Virus record (IMG/VR): IMGVR_UViG_3300009784_000001
Coordinates: 54,418 to 118,417 of that record
DNA from: a virus
Taxonomy: Duplodnaviria > Heunggongvirae > Uroviricota > Caudoviricetes
Direction: 5' to 3' (one strand)
DNA: 64,000 nucleotides
The stretch's first letter is position 1. Each line of letters starts with the position of its first letter. Shown piece by piece: positions 4,900 to 61,933 of the stretch. Below the pieces are notes generated by a model. The model worked only from the letters and a program-made list of their open reading frames with translations, did no database searches and had not been told where the DNA came from. A program made the translations under genes and the position numbers.

Positions 4900-4933
4900 C
4901 TTCCCATCAAACAAACAAAATTAAATAAGATTA

Positions 4934-5672: not shown

Positions 5673-5699
5673 GTTATCTAATATTTAATTATTTGTTAT

Positions 5700-5756
5700 C
5701 ACAAAGATATGAAAAATTATCTAATCTATAAAGAAAAAAATGTTAATTAATCTTAA
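5700..5756 (-). promoter_or_regulatory. early promoter (same class)
   Basis: Plus strand shows cacaaagata at 5700-5709 and atgttaattaatcttaa at 5740-5756. Confidence 0.6.
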
Positions 5757-5766
5757 TATTATTTTG

Positions 5767-5780
5767 TACTCATTTGAGTA
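5767..5780. repeat. TACTCA-TT-TGAGTA inverted repeat, copy 1 of 6
   Basis: Exact 14-mer found 6 nt 3' of the stop codon of gene 5787-6029. Confidence 0.7.
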
Positions 5781-5786
5781 TATATA

Positions 5787-6029
5787 TTAAAATTCTTTTA
5801 CATCAAAACTGTCAATTACAACAATCTCCCCTATTTTATAAGGCTTCAAATAATTATCCCTGTAAGACTTCCAATAGGAATTGTTAAATTTATTTAAAGC
5901 CTTATCCATCCTTATTTGTTTATTTCTGTTGGATGGATAGTATTTTAACAACTTCCCTACCCTTGTGCAAATAACTGCAAAGTCCTCTTTGAAATATAAA
6001 ATTGTTGCTTTTTGTCCTATGTATTCCAT
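5787..6029 (-). CDS. hypothetical protein (80 aa)
   Basis: Track ORF. Confidence 0.45.
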   Translation of the reverse strand: MEYIGQKATILYFKEDFAVICTRVGKLLKYYPSNRNKQIRMDKALNKFNNSYWKSYRDNYLKPYKIGEIVVIDSFDVKEF

Positions 6030-6583: not shown

Positions 6584-7152
6584 TCTTCAAAACAAAATGA
6601 GCTATCCTTAAAATATTCCCATTCATTAATTTCACTCATTTCAATAAAATTTTCTTCACTGAAATAATAATCATAATCCGCTTGAATAGCTTTTTGCCCA
6701 CTCTGGTAACATTCTCTAACAAGTTCCCCATAAGTCAAAGGACTATTTTTATAATCATTTAACCACTCCCAAAAAGGATCTAAAAAGACATCATCCATGC
6801 AGTATCCTGTCAATGGACAACTATATCTTTTTACATTGCTATTTTTATTTGTATATTCCTCTCCTTTGGTAAACTTTGAAATAACATCATTTACTTTCAA
6901 AAAGCTGTACAACTCTTCTCCTGTCAATTCTTCAATTTCTGTCAAGTTATAAACTCCATAAGTTACTGCAATTTCATCCCTTCTTAACCATATATAAGGT
7001 AAAGCATCTATGAAGGCTTTTATTGTTGCTTCATTATCCCTATTATCATAACTTTCATCTTTTTGAAAATTATAATGTGCCTTTTCAAAAGCCTTTGGAA
7101 ATAATTCCTTTAATTCTTTTGCTGTGTAAGCTGTTTTTTCTATTATTCTCAT
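6580..7152 (-). CDS. hypothetical protein (190 aa)
   Basis: Track ORF. Promoter at 7183-7239 lies upstream. Confidence 0.5.
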   Translation of the reverse strand: MRIIEKTAYTAKELKELFPKAFEKAHYNFQKDESYDNRDNEATIKAFIDALPYIWLRRDEIAVTYGVYNLTEIEELTGEELYSFLKVNDVISKFTKGEEYTNKNSNVKRYSCPLTGYCMDDVFLDPFWEWLNDYKNSPLTYGELVRECYQSGQKAIQADYDYYFSEENFIEMSEINEWEYFKDSSFCFED

Positions 7153-7182
7153 CTTATCTAATATTTAATTGTTGTTTGATAA

Positions 7183-7239
7183 AACAAAGGTACAAAATTA
7201 TATTGATACTACAAAAAAATTAATGTTAATAATTGTTAA
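7183..7239 (-). promoter_or_regulatory. early promoter (same class)
   Basis: Plus strand shows aacaaaggta at 7183-7192 and gttaataattgttaa at 7225-7239. Confidence 0.6.
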
Positions 7240-7598
7240 TTCGTTTTGCTTCTGATTCTATCAAATTCAACAATTTCATTAAAATTATTACCATCAATAT
7301 GTGGATATTTTATTTTTAAAACATCAATATCAACCATCAAATTATTCATTTCTTCATCAGAAAAGGAAGAAATTAATGCCAAATGTTTACTATCCCATTT
7401 CTTATAAAATTCATAAGCAGCACTATTTTTTGGCAATAACCTTTCCTGTGCCTGACCTCCCCCTGCATAATCAGTCCTTCTGTAATTTAATTGATTAGCA
7501 ACTGTGGAAAAATATTCGTCACTATTTTTTCTGTAAGACTGCCCTCCTACTTCCACTTCAAAAAATATCCTTTTCTTTACTCTAAAACTTACTGTCAT
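7236..7598 (-). CDS. hypothetical protein (120 aa)
   Basis: Track ORF. Promoter at 7635-7695 lies upstream. Confidence 0.5.
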   Translation of the reverse strand: MTVSFRVKKRIFFEVEVGGQSYRKNSDEYFSTVANQLNYRRTDYAGGGQAQERLLPKNSAAYEFYKKWDSKHLALISSFSDEEMNNLMVDIDVLKIKYPHIDGNNFNEIVEFDRIRSKTN

Positions 7599-7634
7599 AT
7601 TACCTAATTTTTATTTGTTTATTTTGTTAAGCAA

Positions 7635-7695
7635 TACAAAGATACAAAATCTTTTCCAATCCACAAAAGAAATAAAGTTAATAAAAGTTAAAAAT
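7635..7695 (-). promoter_or_regulatory. early promoter (same class)
   Basis: Plus strand shows tacaaagata at 7635-7644 and aagttaataaaagttaaaaa at 7676-7695. Confidence 0.6.
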
Positions 7696-7767
7696 TTTTC
7701 ATATTATATAATATTAAAATTTATTCAAAATTTATTATAGATATTTTAACATTCTTAAGAACTACAT

Positions 7768-7808
7768 AAAAAAACCGACCAAAAATAAACATTTCGATCG
7801 GCGGTTTT
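7768..7808 (-). terminator. putative intrinsic terminator
   Basis: On the minus-strand RNA, CCGAUC...GGUCGG forms a 6-bp stem followed by UUUUUUU (the plus-strand A-run at 7768-7775). It closes the ORF-free region. Confidence 0.45.
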
Positions 7809-8312
7809 ATCCTTTTATGATATAACTTTGCCTTCTACTACCTCATTATACTGGCAACAAAATTATAGTGCGACTCATAAAAGTTTCTTGGAATAAAACA
7901 GGAGGTTTATTATCTTTTCTTATCCCTCAAATTGCAGACGTTTCTTTATGATCCCGCCAAAAACACTTCACTTAATTTGCAATTACCTAATCAAATGATG
8001 GTTGTCAATTTCTTTTAATTGTTATGGATATTAATCATTATCATATGTGCCAAACTTTCAATACCCAATTAAAATTTCCCTTAATCTTCAACCAAATTCA
8101 AACACTGCCATCAGGTAGGCAACTAACAACCTTTGAACTTACAAGGCGTTCCAACTCTTTTATTTCACGACTTGGACTAATCGTGCCTTATCCAAATTAA
8201 TAACCCATTTTGTAAAACCCTAAAAACAACCAATGGAAATTTCAAATTATGGACTAACCACTTGGAGTTTTTGTTAAAATAACTTTGAATAAATTTTTTG
8301 CGCTGGTGTAAA
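7776..8312 (-). ncRNA. candidate non-coding RNA of about 530 nt, class unknown
   Basis: No ORF longer than 14 codons on the minus strand. A canonical early promoter (8320-8376) points into the region and a terminator sits at its far end. GC content is visibly higher than in the flanks, and there are local hairpins such as CACGAUUAGUCCAAGUCGUG. Confidence 0.35.
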
Positions 8313-8319
8313 ATCGTAA

Positions 8320-8376
8320 TACAAAGATATAATTTTATTTTTATATAACCAAACCTTTTATGTTAAAAATTCTTAC
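8320..8376 (-). promoter_or_regulatory. early-type promoter driving the ORF-free region
   Basis: Plus strand shows tacaaagata at 8320-8329 and tatgttaaaaattcttac at 8359-8376. The downstream side has no ORF. Confidence 0.55.
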
Positions 8377-8582
8377 TCCATTACCCATATAACCCCTTTT
8401 TCACTCCCTCTAAAAACATTTGAACAGGCAATAGGTTTATTTTCTATCTTATCAGAAAAATAACATCCACTTGCATCTGCTCTCAAAAAACAACAACCTT
8501 TACAAATGTTGCTTTCTGTTTCTATTGCTTTAACTTTTCCTGCAATAAACATTGTATTCTCATCAATTTTAATTACTTCCAT
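8373..8582 (-). CDS. small Cys-rich protein (69 aa)
   Basis: Track ORF carrying CKGCC and CS motifs. Confidence 0.45.
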   Translation of the reverse strand: MEVIKIDENTMFIAGKVKAIETESNICKGCCFLRADASGCYFSDKIENKPIACSNVFRGSEKGVIWVME

Positions 8583-8601
8583 ACATATAAACTATTTTAA
8601 T

Positions 8602-8615
8602 ACTCATTTGAGTAT
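8602..8615. repeat. TACTCA-TT-TGAGTA inverted repeat, copy 2
   Basis: Exact 14-mer found 6 nt 3' of the stop of gene 8621-8824. Confidence 0.7.
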
Positions 8616-8620
8616 GTTTG

Positions 8621-8824
8621 TTAAACTTTATAATATTCATCAGTTTTCAAAAATTGATTCCAATCATTTTGTGCCCAGAAACAGACCGCTCCTGCAAATT
8701 CTTGTTTTGAAAAAGGCAATGTCCTGTATTTCCATTCTGTTTTACCATTATATTGGACATATATTGTGAATGTTCTATTCCGCTTGTTTGAAGAAATTTT
8801 CAATATTTTACCTTTTACTTTCAT
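8621..8824 (-). CDS. small protein, family A (paralog of 14627-14833)
   Basis: The NRTFTI...YKYRT.PFS...DW..F....D.YY pattern is shared with the protein at 14627-14833. Confidence 0.5.
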   Translation of the reverse strand: MKVKGKILKISSNKRNRTFTIYVQYNGKTEWKYRTLPFSKQEFAGAVCFWAQNDWNQFLKTDEYYKV

Positions 8825-8827
8825 AAA

Positions 8828-9025
8828 TTAAAAAAATTTGCTTCTATCACCCAAAATATCAATTATTTCTTTATGACTTTTTCCATAAATGTTAATAGTT
8901 TTAACATCTGCATCTCCACCATTTCCATATCTATCAATTATATCCATTTCAAATTCATTCCAATTCAAAATGTCATAATCACTTTTCCTTTCAATATATG
9001 CTATTGCTAAATTATCTAATTTCAT
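8828..9025 (-). CDS. hypothetical protein (65 aa)
   Basis: Track ORF. Confidence 0.4.
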   Translation of the reverse strand: MKLDNLAIAYIERKSDYDILNWNEFEMDIIDRYGNGGDADVKTINIYGKSHKEIIDILGDRSKFF

Positions 9026-9027
9026 AA

Positions 9028-9237
9028 TTATCTTGTATATGGATATTTGTTTCTTATCAATTCTTTGAACATTCTTTTAGCTTCTGCAACACTATAACCA
9101 ATATATCTTTCTGTTACAGTAGTCCCAAACATAGTGTCCCAGCTTAAACTAAAACCATCAACCCTATGTAAGATTAAATAAATAGGACTTCCTTTCCAAT
9201 TCTTTTCAATGTTGTTATAACCAAATGTAAGTTTCAT
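9028..9237 (-). CDS. hypothetical protein (69 aa)
   Basis: Track ORF. Promoter box at about 9267-9324 lies upstream. Confidence 0.45.
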   Translation of the reverse strand: MKLTFGYNNIEKNWKGSPIYLILHRVDGFSLSWDTMFGTTVTERYIGYSVAEAKRMFKELIRNKYPYTR

Positions 9238-9325
9238 ATTATATAAGTTTTATTGTTTGTTTGTACTACAAAGGTAAGGAAAAAACTCCAGACTACAAAA
9301 TTTCTGGAGTTAATAAATGTTATTT

Positions 9326-9517
9326 TTACTTATAACCTATAACTCTCAATAATTTAGAAATTTCTTTATCTTCCAGAAGAAGGTAGTTTTCTTCTTTTAA
9401 TCTTAATTTTATAAAATCAAAATTACTTTTAATCCCTAATCTATTTAATGTTTCACTGTTACAATGATTACATTCATCTTGAAATTCTTTAATTTTTTCC
9501 CAGCTTGCTTTTTTCAT
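9326..9517 (-). CDS. hypothetical protein (63 aa)
   Basis: Track ORF. Confidence 0.4.
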   Translation of the reverse strand: MKKASWEKIKEFQDECNHCNSETLNRLGIKSNFDFIKLRLKEENYLLLEDKEISKLLRVIGYK

Positions 9518-9529
9518 ATTATCTAATAT

Positions 9530-9958
9530 TTAATATTTCAAATTTCTACATATCGGACCCATCCCTAATTCAATACTTTCAGGATCAGTTAATTCTCTAT
9601 CACATTTTGAACACCTACCACTGTGAAATAAACTCATTTCACTGTGAGGACTATATCTGTTAATGTATCTGTCAATAATAAATTGAAATGTTTTATAAGA
9701 TACTGCATCTTTTCCTACCCTGCTTTTTGCAGTTAAAATCAACTCCCATTTACCAAAATATTTTTTTAATATACCAATGTAAAGAAAAGTATCAGAAGAA
9801 TTTTTAACAGAAATAAAATAACTATTCTTATTATTGCTTGTTTCCTTTACCTTATAAGTAAAATGTTTTCCAGAACGCTCTGACCTTACTGTTAAAATGG
9901 CTCGCCCACCCAAAATAAAGTCCTTTTCAAACCCTTTCTTTAATTGATGCTGTTCCAT
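9530..9958 (-). CDS. hypothetical protein with C-terminal zinc ribbon
   Basis: CSKCD...GPIC motif. Promoter at about 9979-10038 lies upstream. Confidence 0.5.
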   Translation of the reverse strand: MEQHQLKKGFEKDFILGGRAILTVRSERSGKHFTYKVKETSNNKNSYFISVKNSSDTFLYIGILKKYFGKWELILTAKSRVGKDAVSYKTFQFIIDRYINRYSPHSEMSLFHSGRCSKCDRELTDPESIELGMGPICRNLKY

Positions 9959-38571: not shown

Positions 38572-39534
38572 TTACTTGTTTAATGGAATTAAATTCAACA
38601 TATATTTTTTTCCTTCTTCACTGTTCATCAGTGGAGCATCATCAATAATCCATTTATTTCTAATAATATCTTCTTTTTGATAATCAAAAAATGTTTCTAT
38701 CAATGGTGTCTTAATAACTGTAGAATATGGTAATAACACTGAATACTGATTATTTATAGTTTGAAAATCTGTATGAATTTCTTTGCCATTAACAAATTTC
38801 TTTTTTGTAATTAATCTACCTCTTTTTTGACCAATAGGATAATCATTCCAATTGATATTTTTCTCTTGAAATAGTAATTCTTGCATTTGATCAGTATTTT
38901 TCTTATGTAATTCTTTTGGTGAAAAATAAGTTTGAGCAGCCATTGAAATGCTATTTCTTACACAATCTAACTGGCGAAATAAGAACCAGGAAAAAGCATC
39001 ATTTTGTGTGGGTACAACAAATGCCCTACAATCAAACTCAGCTAACTTGAAATCTCTGATTTGATCATAAATTGTTAAATCCTTATCAACTTCAACACCA
39101 TCTATTGTTTGTTTATATTGTTCTCCAAACTCATCACAAAATCCTTCACATTTTTGATTTTCCAATTTTCTAACCATTCTTAATTGATTGAATTTGGAAG
39201 CTGCCATTGAAGCTGCAAGAGAGTTAATCTTACATAATCTGTAATCAAACCATGCTTGTTTTTCTCTTGTATCATAATCACAAACAAAAATACTTATTTC
39301 ATCAGATTGAACAAATGCAAATAATGCTCCTGAAATATTGGAACATAGATATTTTGCAGTTTCATTCATATCTTCGATGAAACCTGTATCAAATGGTTTT
39401 TCAAGTTTATTCTTAAATTGATGGGAAAAGGAACGACCATCTAACACCATAATAACATATGATTTTACTGGTAGTTTATAATCACATAAACCTCTATAGT
39501 ATAACATTCTATCTTCTAATTTATTCCATTTCAT
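38572..39534 (-). CDS. Thg1-like protein (tRNA-His guanylyltransferase / 3'-5' nucleotidyltransferase family)
   Basis: LPVKSYVIMVLDGRSFSHQF...EKPFD...SDEISIFV aligns with yeast Thg1 LPQCYIVVRIDGKKFHEF...AKPNDE...ESDEYSFIL. There is a C-terminal extension of about 80 aa. Confidence 0.8.
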   Translation of the reverse strand: MKWNKLEDRMLYYRGLCDYKLPVKSYVIMVLDGRSFSHQFKNKLEKPFDTGFIEDMNETAKYLCSNISGALFAFVQSDEISIFVCDYDTREKQAWFDYRLCKINSLAASMAASKFNQLRMVRKLENQKCEGFCDEFGEQYKQTIDGVEVDKDLTIYDQIRDFKLAEFDCRAFVVPTQNDAFSWFLFRQLDCVRNSISMAAQTYFSPKELHKKNTDQMQELLFQEKNINWNDYPIGQKRGRLITKKKFVNGKEIHTDFQTINNQYSVLLPYSTVIKTPLIETFFDYQKEDIIRNKWIIDDAPLMNSEEGKKYMLNLIPLNK

Positions 39535-40474
39535 ATTTTGTCCAACCTCTATACTTTTTAATCTTATTATTTTTTAATTTTAACAAATAATCATATCCCA
39601 AATCATTTTCCTTTGCAAAGCCCTTCAAATCCAAAATGTGATGAATTTTTTCATCAGGAGATTTTAAATCACATTCACCTCTATTTTTTTTTACATATAT
39701 ACCATTCTTTTTACAATAGTACAAAACTAATCCACTATCCAAATTTAATTTTAAACCTATATTATTTACATTTTCACCATCCTTGTGCATTTCTAATATA
39801 GTTGGGATTAAATATTTATGATCTTTGAAACCATTTTTTTCAATATTTTTATTTTTATATGGATATACAACCCATTTATGCTTATAATCTTCAAAAGGAC
39901 ATTTGCCAATATCTTTTAAAAATTTTTCAACATTTCTTCTTGGAATATTAATAATAGGTTTTTTTTCATTAAATCCTATTTTTGCTTCATATTCTTTTAA
40001 TTGTTTAATTAATATGTTTTCTATCTCTTCACAACAAAAAGAATTTGTTGATAATTTTATATTATTTGTTACACATTCATTTTCTCTATTATCTATTGAA
40101 CCATCTCCTAGATACCATATCAAATTACATAATTTATCAAGTTTTAAATCTAAGGGAACCATTTTTTTATCATTAGGATACCATTTTTCTTTCAATTCAT
40201 ACCAGAATAAATTTGATTTTGCTGATAATCTAAATTCTTTATAAATTTTATTTGTTCTTTTATCATAATATTCATAACTTTGAGGATGATTATCACACCA
40301 TACATATTCTGGTAATAATTTTTTGATAAACATTATAAATTCTAAAGAAGAACTGTTTAAGAAAAAATTAAAACTTTTTTTATTAATTCCTCCATCACTT
40401 AATAATAAACCATTTATAACTGACATTTCTTTTTCATTAAAAGAAAATTTTTCATATTTCCATTTTTTATTCAT
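39521..40474 (-). CDS. LAGLIDADG homing endonuclease (double-motif, free-standing)
   Basis: Motif 1 INGLLLSDGGI and motif 2 LIWYLGDGSI sit about 100 aa apart. The ORF overlaps the Thg1-like start by 14 nt. Confidence 0.7.
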   Translation of the reverse strand: MNKKWKYEKFSFNEKEMSVINGLLLSDGGINKKSFNFFLNSSSLEFIMFIKKLLPEYVWCDNHPQSYEYYDKRTNKIYKEFRLSAKSNLFWYELKEKWYPNDKKMVPLDLKLDKLCNLIWYLGDGSIDNRENECVTNNIKLSTNSFCCEEIENILIKQLKEYEAKIGFNEKKPIINIPRRNVEKFLKDIGKCPFEDYKHKWVVYPYKNKNIEKNGFKDHKYLIPTILEMHKDGENVNNIGLKLNLDSGLVLYYCKKNGIYVKKNRGECDLKSPDEKIHHILDLKGFAKENDLGYDYLLKLKNNKIKKYRGWTKYEME

Positions 40475-40953: not shown

Positions 40954-41166
40954 TCAGAATGGAGTGATAGGAGAATTATCAGCCTCTAATTTATTTGTTT
41001 TTGTATTAAAAACTATCCCTGTATTATGTGAAATGGCTTCATTTGGATGTTTGGAAGCATATCTTAAAGCCTTAATATTATAATAAGTTTCACCAAGTTT
41101 ACCAATCGCCCAACAAAGAAGAATTGTAACTATTATTGTTACTACTAATACTATAATAATTTTCAT
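40954..41166 (-). CDS. small membrane protein (70 aa)
   Basis: N-terminal transmembrane segment. Overlaps the ClpX-like stop. Confidence 0.4.
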   Translation of the reverse strand: MKIIIVLVVTIIVTILLCWAIGKLGETYYNIKALRYASKHPNEAISHNTGIVFNTKTNKLEADNSPITPF

Positions 41167-42266
41167 ATTATTTGATTTTTACTTATTACATATTCTTTGG
41201 TTACATTTACTTTTTTAATTCCTTTTTCTGGAATTTCAAAAGCATAATCCTGTAATATTTTTTCAAGAATATTTCTTAAACTTCTTGCCCCTGTCTTTAA
41301 GTTTATAGCTATTTTAGCTATTTCGGTAAGTGCATCTTCATCAAATGAAAGAGAACAATCATCCATTGAAAATAATTGTTTGAATTGCTTTATAATAGCG
41401 TTCTTTGGTTTAATTAAAATATTAACAAGCATTTCTTCTGTTAATGGATTTGTATTTGTCATAATTGGAAATCTACCAATTAATTCAGGAATTAAACCAA
41501 ATGATCTTAAATCATCTGGAATTGCATATTTAAGAATTTCATTTTCATTGATATTTTTCCTTTCATTAGAAACATTAAATCCTACTTTATTAACATTTAA
41601 TCGTTTTTTTATTTTTTTATCAATACCTTCAAATGCTCCCATTCCAATGAACAGCACATTTTTTGTATTAAATGAAATTGTAGGTTTATCAGGATGTTTT
41701 CTTTGACCATCTGTTTGAATTTCTACTATACTATCTTCCAATAATTTTAATAATCCTTGTTGAACTCCTTCACCAGAAACATCACGAGTGACTGATGGAT
41801 TTTCAGATTTTCTTCCTATCTTATCAATTTCATCTAAGCATATTATGGACATTTCAGCTTGTTTAAGATTACCATTTGCAGCTTTTAATGCACCAACCAA
41901 AACAGTTTCAATATCTGATCCAACATAACCACTTTCAGTTAATGTTGTGCAATCAGCAATATAACAGGGAACATTTAAGAATTTAGCAATTGTTTTTACT
42001 ATATAACTTTTTCCTGTTCCAGTTTCCCCTAAAATAATCACATTTGATTTATCAATTTCAATAGTATCATTTTCCATATCATTATTATTGATAATTCTTT
42101 TATAATGATTATAAACTGCTGTACATAGTACTCGTTTTGTTTCTTCTTGCCCAATGACATATTGATCAAGATATTCTTTTAATTGATGTGGTTTAATTGC
42201 ATTTAATATTGGGACATTATTATCAATCAAATCCTTATATATATCTATTCTATTTAAATTATTCAT
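41163..42266 (-). CDS. ClpX-like AAA+ ATPase (no N-terminal zinc-binding domain)
   Basis: YVIGQEETKRVLCTAVYNHYKRI, the Walker A motif GETGTGKS, TLTESGYVGSD, an IGF-like VGF loop and the sensor LIGRFP all parallel E. coli ClpX. Confidence 0.8.
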   Translation of the reverse strand: MNNLNRIDIYKDLIDNNVPILNAIKPHQLKEYLDQYVIGQEETKRVLCTAVYNHYKRIINNNDMENDTIEIDKSNVIILGETGTGKSYIVKTIAKFLNVPCYIADCTTLTESGYVGSDIETVLVGALKAANGNLKQAEMSIICLDEIDKIGRKSENPSVTRDVSGEGVQQGLLKLLEDSIVEIQTDGQRKHPDKPTISFNTKNVLFIGMGAFEGIDKKIKKRLNVNKVGFNVSNERKNINENEILKYAIPDDLRSFGLIPELIGRFPIMTNTNPLTEEMLVNILIKPKNAIIKQFKQLFSMDDCSLSFDEDALTEIAKIAINLKTGARSLRNILEKILQDYAFEIPEKGIKKVNVTKEYVISKNQII

Positions 42267-42463
42267 ATTGTAGTCATTATTAATAAATTATTAATAAAAA
42301 TAAACAAAAATATTATAAATAACAATATCATAGCTATATTAAATAATTTATTTCTTAATTTTTCATTTTTTATAAAAAAAGAAATAGCATAAAGTAAAGT
42401 ACTTAATATTGTTGAAATTAATGTTATTAATAATATTTTATCCATATATGTTATATTATTCAA
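42263..42463 (-). CDS. small membrane protein (66 aa)
   Basis: Hydrophobic. Confidence 0.35.
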   Translation of the reverse strand: MNNITYMDKILLITLISTILSTLLYAISFFIKNEKLRNKLFNIAMILLFIIFLFIFINNLLIMTTI

Positions 42464-44224: not shown

Positions 44225-44659
44225 TTATAATAATTTTAATTCTTTTGTAAACTCATCAATATCTTCATTCCACCAGGGCCCTATACCAACACAAGTTTTG
44301 GTTTTAATTCCATGAAATTCTGTTAATCCAGCATCTTCAATCATAACACAAGGTATTTCAGGTTTTTCAGAAGTTATTTTATTATATAGATTTACTAATT
44401 CTTCTTCTGATTCTACATATAAACATATTTTAGTAAATATACCATTTAACCATTTATCTAATACTCCATCTTTTTCAAATCTTGTTTCGTAGCAAGTCAT
44501 TACAGGAGCTTTGGTAAAATTAGGGGTATAATCATATTTATTAAATAACTGTAATAAGGCTCCTAAACTCGCATGAGAACCTTGGGCAATTAATTTGCCT
44601 TTCCTCATATTGAGGTCTTTTCTAACTACTATAACTTGTTTAACATTTTCCATATTCAT
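44225..44659 (-). CDS. peptidyl-tRNA hydrolase, PTH2 family
   Basis: VVRKDLNMRKGKLIAQGSHASLGA compares with archaeal and eukaryotic PTH2 VVRTDLKMGKGKIAAQCSHA. Confidence 0.8.
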   Translation of the reverse strand: MNMENVKQVIVVRKDLNMRKGKLIAQGSHASLGALLQLFNKYDYTPNFTKAPVMTCYETRFEKDGVLDKWLNGIFTKICLYVESEEELVNLYNKITSEKPEIPCVMIEDAGLTEFHGIKTKTCVGIGPWWNEDIDEFTKELKLL

Positions 44660-44816
44660 TTAATTTATTGATTTATAAGATGAACATCTATCAACACGAT
44701 AAAAAAAAAGTCTTTCTATGCCATGAATTCTACAATATTTACAGTTTTCTTTATTTACATATACGCCAAAATTTATATATTCGCCTGCAAACATACAATC
44801 TAAACATAATATTTTT

Positions 44817-45569
44817 TTATTCTCTTTTGTATTCATTTATTCTTTTTTCTGCAATACAAAAATAATCATAATCCATTTCAATTCCAATAAAATCTCTATT
44901 TAATTCTTTACAAGCTACCCCTGTCGTCCCTGAACCCATACAAAAATCCAAAACAGTATCCCCTTCATTAGTGAACAAAGATACAATTCTTTCCATTAAT
45001 TTCAAAGGTTTTTGTGTTGGATGAGCAACTTTTTCTTTTGAATTATGTGGTAAAGCAGGAATATCCATCCAAACATCGGATAAAGTAATCCCCTCTTTCA
45101 AAATACCTTCGGTATATTCTTTTCTGTCTGTTTCGGGTTTTATTTTTATATTATTAAAAACAGGATTATCTCCTCTTGAATAATAACAAATTGGTTCATA
45201 TCCAGAAGCTAATGCTTTTCCTCTTGTATTATTAAATCCTCTTTTTCTTGCCCATATAATAATACGTTTTTCATCAAAATACTCATCCAGTCTTTTACAT
45301 ATATATTTATTATATTGTCTTGAAGTAAATAAAATAATATTTGCATTATCTTTTAACAATTGAGGAAAACATCTAATAATTAGAGTTATCCAATCAAGAT
45401 AAGATTCCAAATTTGCCCATTGGTTATCCCATTTATTTTTTATTACTTCAAAATATGGTAAATCTGCAATAATACAATCAATAGAATTTGGTATTATTAA
45501 TTTTCCATCAAATTTATCATTTATAAGAACATCAAAAATATCTTCATTATATAATTCAATTTTACTCAT
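44817..45569 (-). CDS. DNA methyltransferase, beta-class (N4-cytosine or N6-adenine)
   Basis: N-terminal DLPYFE (a DPPY-like motif IV) and C-terminal motif I VLDFCMGSGTTGVACKELNRDFIGIE. Confidence 0.75.
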   Translation of the reverse strand: MSKIELYNEDIFDVLINDKFDGKLIIPNSIDCIIADLPYFEVIKNKWDNQWANLESYLDWITLIIRCFPQLLKDNANIILFTSRQYNKYICKRLDEYFDEKRIIIWARKRGFNNTRGKALASGYEPICYYSRGDNPVFNNIKIKPETDRKEYTEGILKEGITLSDVWMDIPALPHNSKEKVAHPTQKPLKLMERIVSLFTNEGDTVLDFCMGSGTTGVACKELNRDFIGIEMDYDYFCIAEKRINEYKRE

Positions 45570-47009: not shown

Positions 47010-48548
47010 ATGAATATACCAACAAATTTAAAAGTTATACAAAGTGGCAATATGCCCAATTCTACTACTTTAACCTCTGGACAAATAGCATTTGGAAAAA
47101 TAGGGGGGGGGGGTAATATAAGATTGTTTATGAATGATGGTTCTGCTATAACAGAACTATCAGATATTTTTGTTCCTTATGGAAATAAATTAAGTTCTTC
47201 TTCTCCTTTACCTATTGGCCCTAATAGTACTGTTAATGGCTTTGGAGGAATTGCAATAGGTTATAACTCAAGTGCAGCAGGAGGTTTATTAAGTACTGGC
47301 CCAATTGCAATAGGTTTTAATGCAGTTTCATCTATTAATTCAATAGCAATAGGGTACTTTGCTAATGCAGCAGCAAATACTTCAGTTGTTATAGGTTTTA
47401 ATGCAAGTCAAGATGCTACAAGTCAACCAGGAAATTCAGTTATAATTGGAAGTGGAGCACATGGCTATGCCACTCTTTATAATTCTGGAAATAGTAGTTT
47501 TAGTGGGCAGGGAGTTATAATAGGATCTAATGCAAGTGGAACATGGAAAAATGTAACAGTTATTGGCTATGGAGCGAAAGCTGATCCTACTGCAAATACA
47601 AGTTTACCAATTATTAATGCAAATGGAGCAGATTATGCTCTTTCTATTGGCGCTTGGACAAATGCTTTAGCTAGTGGAGCGATAGCTGTTGGTGGAACTG
47701 CTAATGCAGATGGCAGTATATGTATTGGAAGTGCATGTGATGAAGTTAATGGAATTGCAATAGGAAATTCCTCTCGTGTTATGTCAGGTGCAAATAGTGG
47801 AATTTCAATAGGATATTATTCAAATGCAATTTCACCTAATACAGTGGCAATAGGAAGTTTTGCAATTGCTGGACTAAACGCTTCTTATGGAATAGCTATT
47901 GGAAGAGGAGCACTTCTTCAAAATAGTAATTCAGGAATAGCTATTGGGCTAAATAGTGGTGCAGTTAATTCATCTGCACTTGTTTTAGGTACTCAAAGTA
48001 GTGCTAATGGATTACAAGCATTAGCTATTGGTACAGGTACACAAGCTATTGGTTTAAATACAATAGCAATAGGAACTAGTGTAGTAGCAAATAATACAGG
48101 ATGTATTGCGATAGGAGCAGGAGCAGTTGTGTCCAGTGCAAATACAATGCAGTTAGGAAGTTCAGCTCTTGTAACTGTTTATCGAGGAGCAGGAACAGCT
48201 ACAGCATTTAATACAACATCAGATGAACGTATCAAAGAAAACATAGTTGAAGCAAACACAACAATATGTTTAAGTGATGCCAACAGGTTAAAAGTCAAAC
48301 GATTTTCATATAAAGATTTTGTAAATAGTACTGGTGATAAAACTGTAACTGGGTTTATAGCGCAGGATTTTAGGGAGGTATTTCCAAAGCAAGTAAGTGA
48401 GGTGAAGAAAGTGTATCAAGTTGAAGGAAAAGAAGATGTTGTATTTGAAGATTTGTTAAGCATTGATACATCGCAGGTTATTTATACATTGGTAGGAGCT
48501 ATTCAGGAACTGACGAAACGGATAGAACAATTAGAAAACAAATCATAA
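47010..48548 (+). CDS. tail fibre protein with Gly/Ala/Ser-rich IAIG repeats and a C-terminal intramolecular-chaperone (peptidase S74-like) domain
   Basis: Repeats are of the AIGxN/SIAIGY type. The C-terminal TSDERIKENIVE matches the S...DxRxK autoprocessing signature. The gene is on the plus strand and contains a G11 tract at 47103-47113. Confidence 0.7.
   Translation: MNIPTNLKVIQSGNMPNSTTLTSGQIAFGKIGGGGNIRLFMNDGSAITELSDIFVPYGNKLSSSSPLPIGPNSTVNGFGGIAIGYNSSAAGGLLSTGPIAIGFNAVSSINSIAIGYFANAAANTSVVIGFNASQDATSQPGNSVIIGSGAHGYATLYNSGNSSFSGQGVIIGSNASGTWKNVTVIGYGAKADPTANTSLPIINANGADYALSIGAWTNALASGAIAVGGTANADGSICIGSACDEVNGIAIGNSSRVMSGANSGISIGYYSNAISPNTVAIGSFAIAGLNASYGIAIGRGALLQNSNSGIAIGLNSGAVNSSALVLGTQSSANGLQALAIGTGTQAIGLNTIAIGTSVVANNTGCIAIGAGAVVSSANTMQLGSSALVTVYRGAGTATAFNTTSDERIKENIVEANTTICLSDANRLKVKRFSYKDFVNSTGDKTVTGFIAQDFREVFPKQVSEVKKVYQVEGKEDVVFEDLLSIDTSQVIYTLVGAIQELTKRIEQLENKS
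47103..47113 (+). repeat. G11 homopolymeric tract inside the tail-fibre ORF (encodes GGGG)
   Basis: Eleven consecutive G in a very AT-rich genome, 94 nt into the ORF. The upstream alternative-frame ORF 46931-47116 ends in this tract. Confidence 0.9.
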
Positions 48549-52864: not shown

Positions 52865-55800
52865 TTATGAACAAGCTGACCATCCGCAATTAGTACATTT
52901 TTTACATCCATTTTCATATATAATAGAATTTGTTAATCCACATTCAGGACAAGTTTCATTAATATTACCTTCTTTTTTCTCTAAATATCTATTTAAGATT
53001 CTTGCACAAACACTGCTGAATGAAGTAATACTATCATCATACTTTTTGAAGGTTTTAATAATATATTCAAGTCCTATTCCATGCCTTAATTCTAATGAAG
53101 TACGAGTACAATGCCTTTTTTCTTCTTCACTGTTAAATTCTGTTAAGTTAGGAATTGTGATAAATTCTGAATCAAATTTATATAAGTTCTTTTTTATTTT
53201 TGTTATTGTACCTCTATGTTCTTTTATTTTATTAAAGGAGGTTTTTAATTCAATATTTTCAAGTGTTGGGATGAAACAAAATAATTCATAAGGCATTTCG
53301 CAATATAAACCAATGATAATAATATAATTTTGACCTTTATATTTTATTTTATAAAAATCACTAGTTAATGTTTTTGGACGTTTAGGAGCATTATGTGTTG
53401 CAAAGTCTTTACAAGGATCGTCATTTTTTTTATCTGTTGCCACTAAAACACCACTTCGAGAACCTTCTCTATATATTGTACAACCTTTTAAGTTATATTT
53501 GAATACATTTTTATAAATTTCATCTACTTCTTTAATAGTTACATTTTGAGGAAGATTAATTGTAGATGAAATGGAAGAAGTTATAAATTCTTGTATTAAT
53601 CCTTGTATTTTAACTCTTTCAACCCAATTAATATCATTTGCAGTTTGTTTATAGTATGGTGATTCTTCATAAACTCTTTGCCAATCTGTATTTTCCCACC
53701 CATTATATTCATTTAAACCTCTACTAGCAAGAAAATATTCTTTTAATTTTGGATGAACAACAACAAATTCCTTAAATCCTTTACCATTTTCATCAATGTA
53801 ATCGGCAGTTTCTCCTGGGGTTAATACTCTTCTTCTTACATAAAATGGTAAAAATAATGGTTCAATACCAGAAGTAGTTTGAGTCATTACTGATACTGTG
53901 CCAGTTGGGGCTAATGTACTAATTCCCGAATTTCTTCTTCCATATTTTAGCATTCTTATAGTTTGAGAAGGAAATTCATCAATAATAAATTGATACCATT
54001 CATTATTTCCTATTAAATCAATATATGTATTTTCACTATCTGAAACTTCATGAAACTCTTTATTTTTATCCCATAATGGAAATGTACCTTTCAAAATAGC
54101 TAAATCAATAGAAGCATCCAATTCATTTTCAAGTTTTAATTTCATCACCTTTTGAAGTATGTCAAAATCTCCATAAGGCTTATTTAACGCTGCAAACATA
54201 TCACCTAAAGCTGTGTAACCAGTTCCTGTTCTTCTACCTAAAGAACCTATATTTTTTATTTCTTCCCACAATTTAATTTCAAGTTTTTTACTCTTTGAAC
54301 TTTTTGATAAAAGTAATAAAATTCTATCAACTGCTTCAATTTCTAAGTCAACAATTAAATCAGTCATAACTTGAATTTCATAAAAAATCTCTTTCATCAA
54401 ATCCTTGTCAATAGAACTATTTTCTGTAAAGGGGGAAGATACCATTGAGTAAAGATTAGTAGCCATTAAACGACATGAATCTTTTGGAGCCAAACTTAAT
54501 TCACCACATGGATTTGTAGATACGGCTTTGAGTTCTTTATATATTGATGTGGGGTCATAATTTATCATTCTATCCCAATTTAAAAATCCTGGTTCGGCAT
54601 GATTTCTATTGGAATAAACAAATTCATCCCATATTTCTTTTGCTTTTACCATTTTTATATAACCTTTATGAGTACCATCAATATTAACCAGATTGTATAA
54701 GTGATTATATAAAAAGTAATCTTTTTTAATATGTTCTATATTATATTTCAAAACTTCTTCATCAATTTTTAAATCACAAGGAAATCTCAATATATAATCT
54801 TCATCATTTTCAAGTGCTTGCATAAATTCATCATTAAATTTAATAGATATGTTAGCATTTGTTATAGCATTTGTATTTTGTTTACATTTAATAAAATCTA
54901 ATATATCAGGATGATTGATATCCATTGAAATCATCATAGCCATTTTACGACTTGATTGCCCTATAATTTTGCCTATTACATCATATATTTGCATCCAATC
55001 AACAGGACCAGAAGAAATTTTTGCTGAATTATTAACAGCAGCATTATTGGGTCTTAAATTTGAAATGTCAATACCACAATTATGAATGTTAACAAACCCA
55101 AAATTACTACCACAATAATAATTATTATTATCTTCAACAACTATATCTATATATTTATATTTTATATTATTATCTTCTATTATAGATTTTACTTGAGTTC
55201 TCGATAGTATTTCAAATAATTTAGAATTATTAATTAAACCAATTTTATTAAACAAATATAATGCAGCTTTTCCACATGATCTTTCTTTATTTAAATTAAT
55301 TCTGTTAGCTTTAAATAAATTATATTCTCTTTTATTAAGTCCCAAAGAAGATATTTTTACATTATTTATTAATTCTATCTCTTCATTAAGAAGTTTTATT
55401 TTCCCAGATTGATGCCTATAACTTCTTTCTTTCATCCTATTTAATTTATCTGGATGAATTACATAATTCATTATTTCAGTATATATATCAGAATCTTTAT
55501 AGATATGTAATCTATATAAATTATTTTCATTATTTTTTTTAGGATATCTAATATTTACACTATATCTTTGACCAATTGAAGATAAATAAAATGATATATC
55601 ATCAATAGCATTTTTTGAAGTTATATCAATATCAATTTTACCTTCCTTTCTAATATGACCATCAGAATCAATTAAGCCAGCAAGAAATGGTATCCACAAA
55701 TTATTTTTATTTATAAAATTTGGAACACTCCAAGTATATGTTTTTTTATTAATTTGATTATCTAAAAAATTATCTATAATATAAACACCATCTATACTTG

Positions 55801-56851
55801 AAACTCTAAATTCCCAACATTCGCTTTTATAAGATTTTCTTTTAACTTTTGTAACTAATGATATATTTTCATTATTAATCATTTTTGAAAAAATACTCCT
55901 ATATTTTTCAATAATCTCTTTATTGTTTCCAATAATACTAAAAACACCAGCATAATATCCATATTGTTTTGGAATAGTTAGTCTAGCTGAACCATCACCC
56001 ATATGACAACCAATCCACCAACCAATTTCATCATAATTATTTAAAATATGCTTATATGATTTACCAGAAATAGTTTTATTAAATGTTTTGTCTAATAAAC
56101 CGCTATTATAATTTTCATATCCATATTCCTTTTCTTTTAATACTAATAATGGATGTTTTTTTGATGTTTTTAAATTAATACCATTATTATATTGTATATC
56201 TATTTGTTCATTTTGTAAAACTTCTGTATAAAATTTATCTGTAATTTTTTTCCATTCATCAATTTTAGCATTAATATTAAAACTTAAAACCATATCACCA
56301 ATATTTACATCTTTTATTGGTATAATACCTTTATCTTTCACTAAAATTTTTGAATTTTCTTCAACACAACCCCCACGGCGTTTTCCTACTTGCCCCATTT
56401 CCATAACAGAAATTAGAATATCCTCAATAGAATCTTCTACTGCATCAACTACAAAACAATTGGAAATTGAAGTAGGAGAATTTGTTCCTAAGTTTTCCAT
56501 TATTGAACCACCTGGAATTATATATCTATATCCTTTCAAATAAAAATAAAAATGTTCCTCTAATTCTTCTAATGTTGCATTTTTTAATTTATCAAAACGT
56601 TTTTTTCCAGTATCAGATAATAATTCATATTTGGTTTTATCTATTTTTTGAAAATAATTAAATTCTATTCTTGCAAATTCTTTAGCATATCTTCTATGAC
56701 TATCATCAGGAGTTAATTCACATAAATTTTTATTTTCATCTTTTAAACAATACTTTTTAATCCATGTAGTTGTAGCTAATTCATCATTGTTAAAGTACTT
56801 GAGGGTGGCATTGTAAACCTCATCATAACTATAATTTTTATTTTCGATCAT
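52865..56851 (-). CDS. ribonucleotide reductase large subunit, class II-like, interrupted by an intein
   Basis: Active-site STNPCGELSL, finger loop SGPVDWM and a C-terminal Cys cluster. There is no ATP cone. The track start at 56857 is TTG; the ATG is at 56851. Confidence 0.85.
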   Translation of the reverse strand: MIENKNYSYDEVYNATLKYFNNDELATTTWIKKYCLKDENKNLCELTPDDSHRRYAKEFARIEFNYFQKIDKTKYELLSDTGKKRFDKLKNATLEELEEHFYFYLKGYRYIIPGGSIMENLGTNSPTSISNCFVVDAVEDSIEDILISVMEMGQVGKRRGGCVEENSKILVKDKGIIPIKDVNIGDMVLSFNINAKIDEWKKITDKFYTEVLQNEQIDIQYNNGINLKTSKKHPLLVLKEKEYGYENYNSGLLDKTFNKTISGKSYKHILNNYDEIGWWIGCHMGDGSARLTIPKQYGYYAGVFSIIGNNKEIIEKYRSIFSKMINNENISLVTKVKRKSYKSECWEFRVSSIDGVYIIDNFLDNQINKKTYTWSVPNFINKNNLWIPFLAGLIDSDGHIRKEGKIDIDITSKNAIDDISFYLSSIGQRYSVNIRYPKKNNENNLYRLHIYKDSDIYTEIMNYVIHPDKLNRMKERSYRHQSGKIKLLNEEIELINNVKISSLGLNKREYNLFKANRINLNKERSCGKAALYLFNKIGLINNSKLFEILSRTQVKSIIEDNNIKYKYIDIVVEDNNNYYCGSNFGFVNIHNCGIDISNLRPNNAAVNNSAKISSGPVDWMQIYDVIGKIIGQSSRKMAMMISMDINHPDILDFIKCKQNTNAITNANISIKFNDEFMQALENDEDYILRFPCDLKIDEEVLKYNIEHIKKDYFLYNHLYNLVNIDGTHKGYIKMVKAKEIWDEFVYSNRNHAEPGFLNWDRMINYDPTSIYKELKAVSTNPCGELSLAPKDSCRLMATNLYSMVSSPFTENSSIDKDLMKEIFYEIQVMTDLIVDLEIEAVDRILLLLSKSSKSKKLEIKLWEEIKNIGSLGRRTGTGYTALGDMFAALNKPYGDFDILQKVMKLKLENELDASIDLAILKGTFPLWDKNKEFHEVSDSENTYIDLIGNNEWYQFIIDEFPSQTIRMLKYGRRNSGISTLAPTGTVSVMTQTTSGIEPLFLPFYVRRRVLTPGETADYIDENGKGFKEFVVVHPKLKEYFLASRGLNEYNGWENTDWQRVYEESPYYKQTANDINWVERVKIQGLIQEFITSSISSTINLPQNVTIKEVDEIYKNVFKYNLKGCTIYREGSRSGVLVATDKKNDDPCKDFATHNAPKRPKTLTSDFYKIKYKGQNYIIIIGLYCEMPYELFCFIPTLENIELKTSFNKIKEHRGTITKIKKNLYKFDSEFITIPNLTEFNSEEEKRHCTRTSLELRHGIGLEYIIKTFKKYDDSITSFSSVCARILNRYLEKKEGNINETCPECGLTNSIIYENGCKKCTNCGWSACS
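55079..56368 (-). mobile_element. intein (430 aa) with a double-motif LAGLIDADG homing endonuclease, inside the RNR gene
   Basis: Begins CVEENSKILVKDKG and ends VNIHN followed by a +1 Cys. HE motifs are GWWIGCHMGDGS and FLAGLIDSDGHI. Codons at both junctions were checked on the sequence: Cys is tgt at 56368-56366 and Asn is aat at 55081-55079. Confidence 0.85.
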
Positions 56852-56985
56852 AAACAATATTTGTAAATTTTATTTTTTGGTAAGAAATAAATACTATCAA
56901 ATGTACCAAAATAATCTGATTTTTTTTAATTTTATTTTAAAACTCTGTTAAACAAAAGTATATTTTTTAAAATAAAAACACAACA

Positions 56986-60253: not shown

Positions 60254-61933
60254 TTAATTTAATTTTAATTCTTCAAATGTTGTTGTTATTTCAGGCTTAT
60301 TTAATCCTGTTGATAATGGAAATTTAATTGTTGGATAAGGATTATAATCATTAATTAAAAATGATTTTGAAGATAATAAAGTAAATAACTCTGTTAATTC
60401 TTCACTCTCATATATTTTTTTATCTTTAAGTTTATTTTCAACAATTTCTAAAAATTTATTTGTATTCTTATCTCCATAATTCCAATCTAACCAAGGTAAT
60501 TTTCTTGGTTCTCTTTGTAATTGTTCTAAACATCCTTCAATTTGATTTTCATATAGATGACAAGAATTACCATGCCATTTAAATTTACCTGGCTTATAGC
60601 CTGTAATTTTAGCTAATATATGTAGTAAAAAGGCGTAACTTGCTATATTAAATGGCAACCCTAAAGCCCAATCTACGCTGCGTTGTACCATTAATAAATC
60701 TAAAAATTCTCCTTTTCTAATATTGGTAGAAAATAAAATATGACAAGGAGGTAAACAAACTTCATTATTTTCTAAAACCATTGGATCCCAGGACAAAACT
60801 TGTTGGTATCTAGAATTTGGATTTGATAATATCAAATTAATTAAATTTTTAATTTGATCAATACCATTATCTATATTTTTTCTAACTAATGTAAATCCTT
60901 TATATGATTTATCATTACCACTTAACAAACTATAAAAAGAATCTTCGTTCAAATTATTTTTTTTAACAAATAAAGGAACATTATCTATTAAATATTCAAA
61001 GCCATCTTTATTTTTAATAATATATTTTTTATGTTGAGTAGATATATTTTCCATTTTAGTGGCAAATTTACATGTTGTTTTAGAATACAATAAACCATTT
61101 CCATTAATATCTTTATCTAATTCATATAATTTCCATTGTTTTATTTTTAATTCATAGTTTGGTATATCTTTAATATCCTCCAAAAAATATTCAAAACATT
61201 TCCATCTATTGGATACTCTTACTCCTCTTCCCCCATAATTTTTATATCCAATATTATTTTCATTATAACATCTATCAATCATATGTTCCCATATTTTTTT
61301 AAATTTTATTGTCAAAATATCTTTTTTATTATATATACCAGTACAAGCCACATTTAAATATTTTGGAAAATAAGGATCATAAATACTTCTATCTTTTATA
61401 TGTTCTTCTCTAATAGCTGTTTTATATCCAGTATTTAAAAAATAAATTTCAAATATTTTATGCCTATTTTCTAAATAACATAAATTAGATCTTACAAAAT
61501 CTCCATAATTTTTACTATGGTATATTTCCAAATTCATATTTTCTGGAATGTCATTCAATTTAATAGTAAATGGTTTTTTATCAGGATAACCTATTATTTT
61601 TTTTGCACCAAAACTGCGCCAAAAATAGGGATAAGATTTCCCTAAAATAGTTGCACTTTCTTTATCCCATCTTTTAACATCATCATCCCATATATGACAA
61701 TTATTTTCATGTAAATATTCTAATGTTACTTTCCCTTTTAGAAAAAAAATTAATTCACTAATTATGCCTTTTGTATACATTTTTTTTGTTGTAAGTAAAG
61801 GAAATCCATCATTCATATCAAATTCTAAATCCAAAACAAAAAGTTCACGTGTTCTTGGCATGTTTTCTCTAGCTGGATCTTTAATATCGCCATTTACCAG
61901 AATTTCTTTCATTAAATCTAAATATTGTTTCAT
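60254..61933 (-). CDS. thyA: thymidylate synthase (ThyA family) with a large in-frame insertion
   Basis: N-terminus MKQYLDLMKEIL...FPLLTTKK and C-terminal LPPCHILF...QRSVDWALGLPFNIASYAFLLH...REPRKLP. A conserved Asn in PFN indicates uracil specificity. The protein is 559 aa against about 264 aa for the E. coli enzyme. Confidence 0.85.
   Translation of the reverse strand: MKQYLDLMKEILVNGDIKDPARENMPRTRELFVLDLEFDMNDGFPLLTTKKMYTKGIISELIFFLKGKVTLEYLHENNCHIWDDDVKRWDKESATILGKSYPYFWRSFGAKKIIGYPDKKPFTIKLNDIPENMNLEIYHSKNYGDFVRSNLCYLENRHKIFEIYFLNTGYKTAIREEHIKDRSIYDPYFPKYLNVACTGIYNKKDILTIKFKKIWEHMIDRCYNENNIGYKNYGGRGVRVSNRWKCFEYFLEDIKDIPNYELKIKQWKLYELDKDINGNGLLYSKTTCKFATKMENISTQHKKYIIKNKDGFEYLIDNVPLFVKKNNLNEDSFYSLLSGNDKSYKGFTLVRKNIDNGIDQIKNLINLILSNPNSRYQQVLSWDPMVLENNEVCLPPCHILFSTNIRKGEFLDLLMVQRSVDWALGLPFNIASYAFLLHILAKITGYKPGKFKWHGNSCHLYENQIEGCLEQLQREPRKLPWLDWNYGDKNTNKFLEIVENKLKDKKIYESEELTELFTLLSSKSFLINDYNPYPTIKFPLSTGLNKPEITTTFEELKLN
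60863..61603 (-). other. in-frame inserted domain of about 247 aa within thyA carrying an HNH-family homing-endonuclease-like module
   Basis: WEHMIDRCYNENNIGYKNYGGRGVRVSNRW ... ELDKDINGNGLLYSKTTCKFATKMEN matches the W..M..RC.N...Y.NYGGRGI.V / LDRID..G.Y..NC.W pattern of phage HNH-type endonucleases. It sits in the ThyA small-domain variable loop, after YPYFWRSFGA. There are no intein splice motifs. Confidence 0.55.

Follow-up and report, generated by a model that had tools for sequence, protein, structure and literature searches.

A ClpX homolog without the zinc-binding domain in a jumbo phage, and the viral lineage to which it belongs

The DNA analyzed here is a 64,000-nucleotide stretch (the window) of the Caudoviricetes virus record IMGVR_UViG_3300009784_000001, positions 54,418 to 118,417 of that record, and the gene in question is a minus-strand clpX at 41163-42266 of the window. 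Judged from its sequence, the product is most likely a functional ClpX unfoldase of a jumbo phage of ~360 kb and 26% GC. It lacks the N-terminal zinc-binding domain (ZBD), and profile and motif comparisons identify it as a ZBD-less ClpX variant rather than a canonical full-length member of the family. The ZBD-less forms that we aligned are monophyletic, and all of those whose surroundings were examined lie in phage contexts. We consider it probable (roughly 0.6) that the window protein would act as an adaptor-blind ClpX, driven by degrons read at its pore, that feeds a phage or host ClpP during infection. The window is part of a contig of 359,962 bp (ena:ERZ27257292:k141_1583612), of which ~84 kb were inspected (the 64-kb window and 10-kb flanks). 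Public gene callers predict the same 367-amino acid (aa) protein on this ENA contig and also on a Logan contig of 71,578 bp.

A ClpX ortholog that lacks the zinc-binding domain

The protein passed the cutoffs of both NCBIfam equivalog models for ClpX (NF003745, 468.9 bits against a cutoff of 359; TIGR00382, 436.8 bits against 370.75), whereas the HslU model (TIGR00390) reached 190.6 bits against a cutoff of 362.45 and was split into three stretches. Models of ClpA, ClpB, and ClpV matched at residues ~230-340 only, which is the C-terminal lid, and the protein contains one AAA+ module, not two in tandem. Its top sequence match in the PDB was Listeria ClpX (6sfw, 2.7e-103), followed by ClpX of Mycobacterium tuberculosis, Pseudomonas aeruginosa, Escherichia coli, Helicobacter pylori, Neisseria, and human mitochondria; the HslU matches were about sixty orders of magnitude weaker than those to ClpX. 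An AlphaFold2 model made from an alignment of the ZBD-less clade described below (mean predicted local distance difference test score [pLDDT] 84, predicted template modeling score 0.83) has the ClpX fold of large and small AAA+ domains, with uncertainty confined to the leader at the N-terminus and to the pore and IGF loops. When the model was compared with the PDB by Foldseek, all of the 50 best matches were ClpX chains (template modeling scores 0.71-0.84). Like HslU, the window protein is an AAA+ unfoldase of the single-ring type, and the two belong to the same clade, but its RKH and IGF loops are of the ClpX type. These sequence and model comparisons identify the gene as a clpX ortholog and not as hslU. 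A preliminary description of this DNA had called the protein a ClpX with all AAA+ signatures, and that assignment is borne out: every catalytic and pore-loop residue is intact, and the protein is neither closer to HslU nor an unfoldase without a ClpP-docking loop. The GC content of the gene equals that of the window (26.4% and 26.2%, respectively), which indicates a long-resident gene.

We mapped functional residues by aligning the protein with residues 67-403 of E. coli ClpX, to which it is 46.5% identical. The features of the gene are as follows.

41163..42266, minus strand: clpX, 367 aa, AAA+ module only, ZBD-less (open reading frame [ORF] with ATG start; NCBIfam, PDB, and AlphaFold2/Foldseek matches)
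42195..42266, minus strand: N-terminal leader, aa 1-24, in place of the ~60-aa ZBD and linker (profile match from residue 22)
42006..42029, minus strand: Walker A, GETGTGKS, aa 80-87; K86 corresponds to E. coli K125 (alignment)
41919..41930, minus strand: pore-1 loop, GYVG, aa 113-116; Y114/V115 correspond to E. coli Y153/V154 (alignment; invariant in the ZBD-less clade)
41823..41840, minus strand: Walker B, CLDEID (LDEID is aa 144-148); D145/E146 correspond to E. coli D184/E185 (alignment)
41694..41702, minus strand: RKH loop, R189-K190-H191, corresponding to E. coli R228-K229-H230 (alignment)
41577..41585, minus strand: ClpP-docking tripeptide VGF, V228-G229-F230, corresponding to E. coli I268-G269-F270 (alignment with Listeria and E. 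coli ClpX)
41472..41474, minus strand: Arg finger, R265, corresponding to E. coli R307 (alignment; invariant in the ZBD-less clade)
41274..41291, minus strand: sensor-2, GARSLR, aa 326-331; R328 corresponds to E. coli R370 (alignment)

The closest bacterial ClpX proteins are those of Bacteroidota (Bacteroidales, Marinilabiliales, and Flavobacteriales), which are 53-55% identical over the AAA+ module and agree with the window ClpX in their Walker, pore-1, RKH, sensor, and Arg-finger residues and in having a VGF/VGY-type loop. Unlike them, the window ClpX is phage encoded, has no ZBD, and has no clpP nearby.

The absence of the ZBD is genuine. The NCBIfam ClpX profile aligns only from its position 58, which falls on residue 22 of the query, and PF06689 (the C4 zinc-binding domain), which is present in ordinary bacterial homologs, had no match in the protein. 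The leader that stands in place of the domain has a conservation of 0.24 in the ZBD-less clade and a pLDDT below 50 at residues 1-5 and 15-21; a short motif within it (phi-Y-K...N-P-x-L-N) is common only to the window ClpX and its relatives P0002-P0006 and P0008, which form its own sub-branch. Related huge phages (Lak) recode TAG, and a hidden N-terminal extension read through recoded TAG codons was considered and rejected: the seven nearest upstream in-frame stops are TAA or TGA, and thus no TAG-recoded extension is present. In the window, TAG terminates just 2 of 76 long minus-strand ORFs. A detached ZBD was rejected as well, as the ORF at 44660-44836, which has a C-x2-C...C-x2-C pattern, had no Pfam match even at E ≤ 10. 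No ORF anywhere in the window matched the ClpX zinc-finger family, and the remaining CxxC pairs are unrelated. On the start of the profile match, the missing PF06689 match, and the absence of an upstream extension or a separate ZBD ORF, the earlier claim that the N-domain is missing holds.

A virus-specific lineage of ZBD-less ClpX proteins

We drew relatives of the window ClpX from a search of 5.8 billion proteins. With the exception of P0010, the 17 nearest (55-83% identity, 350-388 aa) are without PF06689. The next tier (53-56% identity) consists chiefly of full-length ClpX from Bacteroidales and Marinilabiliales, with five further ZBD-less sequences interleaved. The genomic context was phage-like for all six of the ZBD-less members inspected: one locus (L027) carries a T4-type portal and a large terminase, and the others carry dNMP kinase (DNMK), NUDIX, thioredoxin, PTH2, and DNA methylase genes. 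One cluster of relatives (P0014) comprises 152 member sequences, a single one of which occurs on 936 contigs, the longest of them 360-464 kb; the GenBank title of this sequence is "protein of unknown function (DUF815) [Bacteriophage sp.]".

A scan of IMG/VR guided by a profile yielded at least 590 viral ClpX stretches. Among the best 80, the ZBD is present in 61, truly absent in ~16 (on contigs of 28-44% GC), and reduced to a degenerate half in 3; these 80 were ranked by similarity to the ZBD-less alignment, and the proportions are not an estimate of overall frequency. By comparison, all of the 80 best cellular ClpX proteins (one genome per GTDB species, identity at most 55%) have the ZBD. In a neighbor-joining tree of 76 AAA+ modules, the 25 ZBD-less sequences formed one group with a bootstrap value of 97 out of 100, which points to a single loss of the ZBD. 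What is new here is this virus-specific, single-origin loss, and not the VGF loop or the gene neighborhood.

The three half-ZBD proteins (L204, L209, and L225) keep the second C-x2-C only (for example, YICNDC). The tree places them near phage G and apart from the ZBD-less clade, and they may represent independent erosion of the domain.

The idea that the ZBD-less architecture is the general form of phage ClpX was rejected. The domain was found in all 17 loci of a first-pass IMG/VR search with a single-protein query, and a C-x2-C...C-x2-C ZBD is kept by the ClpX proteins of phage G, Atu_ph07, Lak-A1, and Lak-B2, none of which the tree places with the ZBD-less group. The ClpX proteins of phage G (gp258), Atu_ph07 (gp2), and Lak are like the window ClpX in being phage encoded, at 44-53% identity, in genomes with other Clp components. 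By tblastn, 177 phage records contain a ClpX; they include the full set of 15 Lak megaphages as well as phage G, Atu_ph07, Phosso, and an uncultured phage of 636 kb. One record in GenBank's phage set, OR845177.1 ("Escherichia phage EC22.5-2", 3,046 bp), encodes a ClpP that is 100% identical to E. coli ClpP and adjoins clpX; this record and several short Listeria, Staphylococcus, Enterococcus, and MT83xxxx "Bacteriophage sp." records resemble bacterial clpP-clpX fragments. Filed as phage, such apparent fragments would inflate the counts of phage ClpX.

The ClpX of Lak-A1 (L006, MK250016.1, frame 2782-4998) is split within Walker B (FLDE|CFDGNTEV...~313 aa...VTVTGN|CDKIARK), and that of Lak-B2 is uninterrupted at the same site (FLDEIDKIARK). 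The inserted segment has Cys as its first residue and Asn as its last, with Cys next after it, and part of it is LAGLIDADG-like; it resembles an intein, here placed in a catalytic motif of the AAA+ module.

The window ClpX is ~50 residues shorter than canonical ClpX, as would be expected of a decaying or truncated fragment without function. Against this reading, its reading frame is intact with all motifs present, its AlphaFold2 model is confident, the same architecture recurs in at least 25 diverged sequences, and one P0014 member sequence alone is found on 936 contigs. The pattern of conservation effectively refutes the idea of a dead fragment, to which we assign a negligible probability.

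The ClpP-docking loop and the source of ClpP

The motor and the docking loop have been conserved together in the ZBD-less clade. The Walker A and B motifs, GYVG, R189, P192, sensor-2, the Arg finger, and G229 vary hardly or not at all; in the RKH region, R189 and P192 are invariant and H191 is at least 90% conserved. In the docking loop G229 is invariant, and position 228 is V or I and position 230 is F or Y in all of the 22 members compared (50-83% identity). The preliminary description had placed the VGF tripeptide at the position of the IGF loop, and the alignment agrees, but to call it "IGF-like" is too weak: among 124 aligned ClpX proteins (the 120 best database homologs together with those of E. 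coli, Lak-B2, phage G, and Atu_ph07), VGF and VGY are the two commonest native forms (VGY 43, VGF 41, IGY 26, IGF 10, LGF 3, and FGF 1). By this comparison VGF is the ordinary docking form of the Bacteroidota type. Because VGF and VGY are native to the closest ClpX proteins, those of Bacteroidota, the loop should be compatible with a Bacteroidota-type ClpP; the host is probably a member of this phylum.

A protein that worked independently of ClpP would have no reason to retain the loop, and its conservation argues that the window ClpX is likely to be coupled to ClpP. The alternative is a chaperone or translocase that remodels phage proteins without proteolysis, for example in virion assembly, protein packaging, or the turnover of replication complexes. 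A chaperone role has been proposed generically for the ClpX and ClpA proteins of jumbo phages (PMC7824862, PMC6102473), ClpX protein has been detected in phage G particles (PMC12484599), and clpX is uncoupled from clpP in the genome at the ZBD-less viral loci. ClpP, however, was detected together with ClpX in the same particles (PMC12484599), and the retention of [VI]-G-[FY] by 22 out of 22 clade members at 50-83% identity is hard to explain without ClpP binding. These points make a purely chaperone function improbable in our view. A further point against it is that MuA, the classical remodeling substrate, depends partly on the ZBD.

The same loop, together with 53-55% identity to Bacteroidota ClpX, could also suit a decoy: subunits lacking the ZBD might tie up host ClpP or form mixed rings with host ClpX, which would dampen adaptor-dependent host proteolysis and shield phage proteins from ClpXP. 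Mixed rings without the ZBD would be expected to be adaptor deficient. The ATPase and pore-loop residues are all conserved in the clade, however, apparently under purifying selection, and a pure decoy could do without them. We regard a dominant-negative role as very improbable.

A second unfoldase is encoded on the same contig, ~22 kb from clpX and past the high-coordinate edge of the window.

7146-9647 of locus L030 (same contig, past window position 64000), minus strand: ClpC-like double-AAA+ protein, 833 aa (PDB match)

Its top PDB match is Bacillus subtilis ClpC (1.8e-147), and its QIGFN aligns with YVGFN, the ClpP-docking loop of B. subtilis ClpC. It falls under the NCBIfam cutoffs for ClpA and ClpB; its D1 Walker B is FFDD instead of hhhhDE, and its D2 pore loop is SYVG. 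The window ClpX shares with ClpC and ClpA membership of the Clp/Hsp100 superfamily and a ClpP-docking [IV]-G-[FL] loop, but it has a single AAA+ module where they have two. ClpC-like homologs also lie near ZBD-less clpX genes in L026 (where the gene bears an intein), L028, L164, and L166. The presence of two unfoldases with ClpP-docking loops strengthens the case for a Clp protease system in this phage group.

Which ClpP would be served is a separate question. The preliminary description had pictured a phage without its own ClpP, whose ZBD-less ClpX captures host ClpP in order to act on host defense or regulatory proteins or on phage proteins. An intact docking loop of the host-type VGF form fits this picture, as does the failure to find ClpP in the ~84 kb inspected. 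A clpP gene lay within 3 kb at 0 of 16 ZBD-less viral loci, in contrast to 70 of 80 bacterial loci, and a phage ClpS has been proposed to redirect host ClpAP (in a jumbo-phage review, PMC7824862). On the other side, ClpX never occurs without a true ClpP in the named huge phages (these ClpP proteins are 46-64% identical to that of E. coli), and in phage G clpP and clpX are adjacent. In a sister ZBD-less lineage, contig IMGVR_UViG_3300045988_177171 encodes both a ZBD-less ClpX (L154) and a 226-aa ClpP (L124) ~130 kb apart, so that distance alone is uninformative. This ClpP has intact Ser, His, and Asp motifs and shares 60.5% identity with the ClpP of Lak and ~65% with that of Muribaculaceae, and a second sister contig (3300045988_175545, 379,916 bp) has a ClpX (L152) and the same ClpP motif. 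Furthermore, the failure to find ClpP covers ~84 of 360 kb, and loss of the ZBD takes a specificity domain away rather than adding one. Capture of host ClpP by a phage that has none of its own, with redirection to such targets, is thus, in our judgment, unlikely. Because the sister lineage encodes ClpP, a phage ClpP in the remaining ~276 kb is about as likely as the use of host ClpP, and we therefore treat the two sources as about equally likely for the window phage. A group of gut phages named "Jug", with genomes of 360-402 kb, 27-30% GC, and Bacteroides and Phocaeicola hosts, has CLP_protease among its frequent domains (PMC12880540).

With either source of ClpP, known ClpX biology would account for the activity that we favor for the window ClpX, and the system is not new in kind. 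The protein would assemble as a hexamer and dock on ClpP through its VGF loops; substrates would be read directly by the axial pore and the RKH loops as C-terminal degrons of the ssrA type and passed to ClpP, and adaptors and substrates that depend on the ZBD would not be recognized. The nearest counterpart is the engineered E. coli ClpX-deltaN, which the window ClpX essentially matches in domain content (the AAA+ module, starting at about E. coli residue 62); it differs in being natural and in having its own leader of ~24 residues. ClpX-deltaN is the construct in most ClpXP structures. ClpX-deltaN binds ClpP and degrades ssrA-tagged substrates, for which the N-domain is dispensable (PMC7112951), and the ZBDs mediate adaptor and substrate recognition and are needed for adaptors and for some substrates (PMC9035409). 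An adaptor-blind ClpX would give the phage a proteolytic capacity that host adaptors and anti-adaptors could not steer.

As for the purpose of such proteolysis, two neighbors bear on it.

44225..44659, minus strand: PTH2 peptidyl-tRNA hydrolase (Pfam PTH2, 2.6e-32)
38572-39534, minus strand: Thg1-like tRNA-His guanylyltransferase (Pfam 2.3e-20; PHROG 8.3e-65)

A PTH2 homolog lies one or two genes from clpX in L031 (82% identity), L027 (61%), and L152-L155 (61%). PTH2 is the sole neighbor that recurs beside ZBD-less clpX, and it was found beside clpX at 0 of 64 other viral loci, that is, those with ClpX that is not ZBD-less. It is thus a possible functional associate of ClpX, and the link suggests a theme of translation and protein quality control. 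The Thg1-like gene is 81% identical in L031; the window has no tRNA genes. Together, the proximity of PTH2, the Thg1-like enzyme, and the ClpC-like unfoldase suggest, speculatively, that the window ClpX might serve translation and protein quality control in the infected cell and not be a dedicated anti-defense weapon.

Several observations weigh against an adaptor-blind, ClpP-coupled ClpX as set out here. No ClpP was found in the 64-kb window (best tblastn E-value 4.5) or in the 10-kb flanks on either side of it. When protein searches were started from the Lak ClpP and from that of the sister lineage, none of the matches listed (the best 120 of 8000) lay on the 359,962-bp contig. The L124-type ClpP cluster occurs on 24 contigs, the longest of 65 kb, as opposed to 936 for the sister ClpX cluster, and ClpP may therefore not be universal even in the sister lineage. 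The tree that unites the ZBD-less proteins was built by neighbor joining on simple distances and not by maximum likelihood. The recurrence of PTH2 is synteny among related phages and may be an inherited gene order. Lastly, the ClpX, ClpA, ClpP, and ClpS genes already listed in jumbo phages (PMC7824862, PMC6102473) are as yet uncharacterized.

The remaining ClpP searches gave the following results. At the clade loci, tblastn for ClpP was without a match. The matches listed in the ClpP-seeded protein searches were mostly Bacteroidales ClpP, and those listed in a scan of JGI metagenomes with an AT-codon-biased ClpP pattern were marine Bacteroidota and Lak-type loci.

Gene neighborhood and implications

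The window has 26% GC, and nearly all of its genes are co-directional; together with its flanks it encodes a dNMP kinase, NUDIX, thioredoxin, T4_Y16D-like, Thg1, PTH2, ThyA, and DHFR proteins. A megablast search with 12 kb around clpX had no match among GenBank phages. The number of sigma-70 promoter-like sites found around clpX (46) was below the 60.8 expected.

The preliminary description had clpX heading a host-manipulation module with two methyltransferases, an HExxH protein, and PTH2. As all of these genes lie on the minus strand, clpX is at their 3' end and is transcribed last. PTH2 was correctly recognized, and one of the methyltransferases is well supported (N6_N4_Mtase, 1.5e-46). The other is a protein of 253 aa in which an N-P-P-F motif is present but which lacks significant family support, its sole family match being to an unannotated PHROG (3.9e-6). 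For the HExxH protein, permissive Pfam searches gave sub-threshold zincin matches only (M91, E = 0.019; SprT-like, E = 0.059). Nor is the module conserved: the genes between PTH2 and clpX differ in L031, the locus of an 83%-identical relative, where nothing beside clpX corresponds to the HExxH protein, the 253-aa protein, or the small membrane ORFs. Thioredoxin and DNMK recur further downstream in relatives. From these comparisons the cluster is ordinary, variable phage gene order, with PTH2-ClpX as a possible exception.

Small hydrophobic ORFs flank clpX on the minus strand at 42263-42463 (66 aa) and 40954-41166 (70 aa), with 4-nucleotide overlaps (ATGA) at its start and stop, respectively. 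The upstream one (42263-42463) is not called by public gene callers, and neither is conserved beside clpX in relatives.

Other features of the region are as follows.

39521-40474, minus strand: free-standing LAGLIDADG homing endonuclease, between a 55-aa ORF and the Thg1-like gene
47010-48548, plus strand: Gly/Ala/Ser-rich repeat protein, 512 aa, with C-terminal Peptidase_S74 and faint similarity to YadA head
52865-56857, minus strand: ribonucleotide reductase large subunit, 1330 aa (Hom_end and LAGLIDADG_3 matches)
60254-61933, minus strand: thymidylate synthase ORF, 559 aa, ~2x the usual length, followed by VWA and DHFR genes
1-5862 of locus L030 (past the window end), minus strand: very large protein, 2,171 aa called, which runs off the fetched locus (ART-PolyVal and InPase)

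The 3' end of the LAGLIDADG gene overlaps the start of the Thg1-like gene (39521-39534). The LAGLIDADG gene is missing at the same position in L031 and is probably a recent mobile insertion. The Hom_end and LAGLIDADG_3 matches indicate that the ribonucleotide reductase is probably interrupted by an intein, and intein-bearing genes were also seen in relatives (UvrD in L031 and the ClpC-like gene in L026); the phage group appears to be rich in inteins and homing endonucleases. Given its double length, the thymidylate synthase ORF presumably contains an extra domain or an insertion. The Peptidase_S74 protein, the sole sizeable plus-strand gene of the region, is probably a tail fiber or spike. The ART-PolyVal/InPase protein is a polyvalent protein of the type seen in large phages and conjugative elements.

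The ZBD-less proteins make up a distinct ClpX lineage, which in the sets examined was found only on phage or viral contigs and in which the domain that recognizes adaptors and substrates was lost once and the motor and the ClpP-docking loop were kept. The gut jumbo phages that carry members of the lineage are very abundant; a phage ClpP accompanies the ZBD-less ClpX in at least one lineage, and a ClpC-like unfoldase does so in several. A broader proposal, which we put forward tentatively and consider rather unlikely as it stands, is that these proteins are a virus-specific lineage, widespread in gut and other jumbo phages and selected precisely because host adaptors cannot steer them, and that with the ClpC-like unfoldase and host or phage ClpP they would constitute a phage-controlled proteolysis that rewires host proteostasis. 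If this is true, the system might clear the products of stalled translation alongside PTH2 or remove particular host proteins by way of a degron read at the pore. The lineage is a natural repeat of the laboratory ClpX-deltaN experiment, from which follows the testable prediction of adaptor-independent proteolysis directed by pore degrons alone, and it offers a handle on how giant phages use proteostasis machinery of their own.

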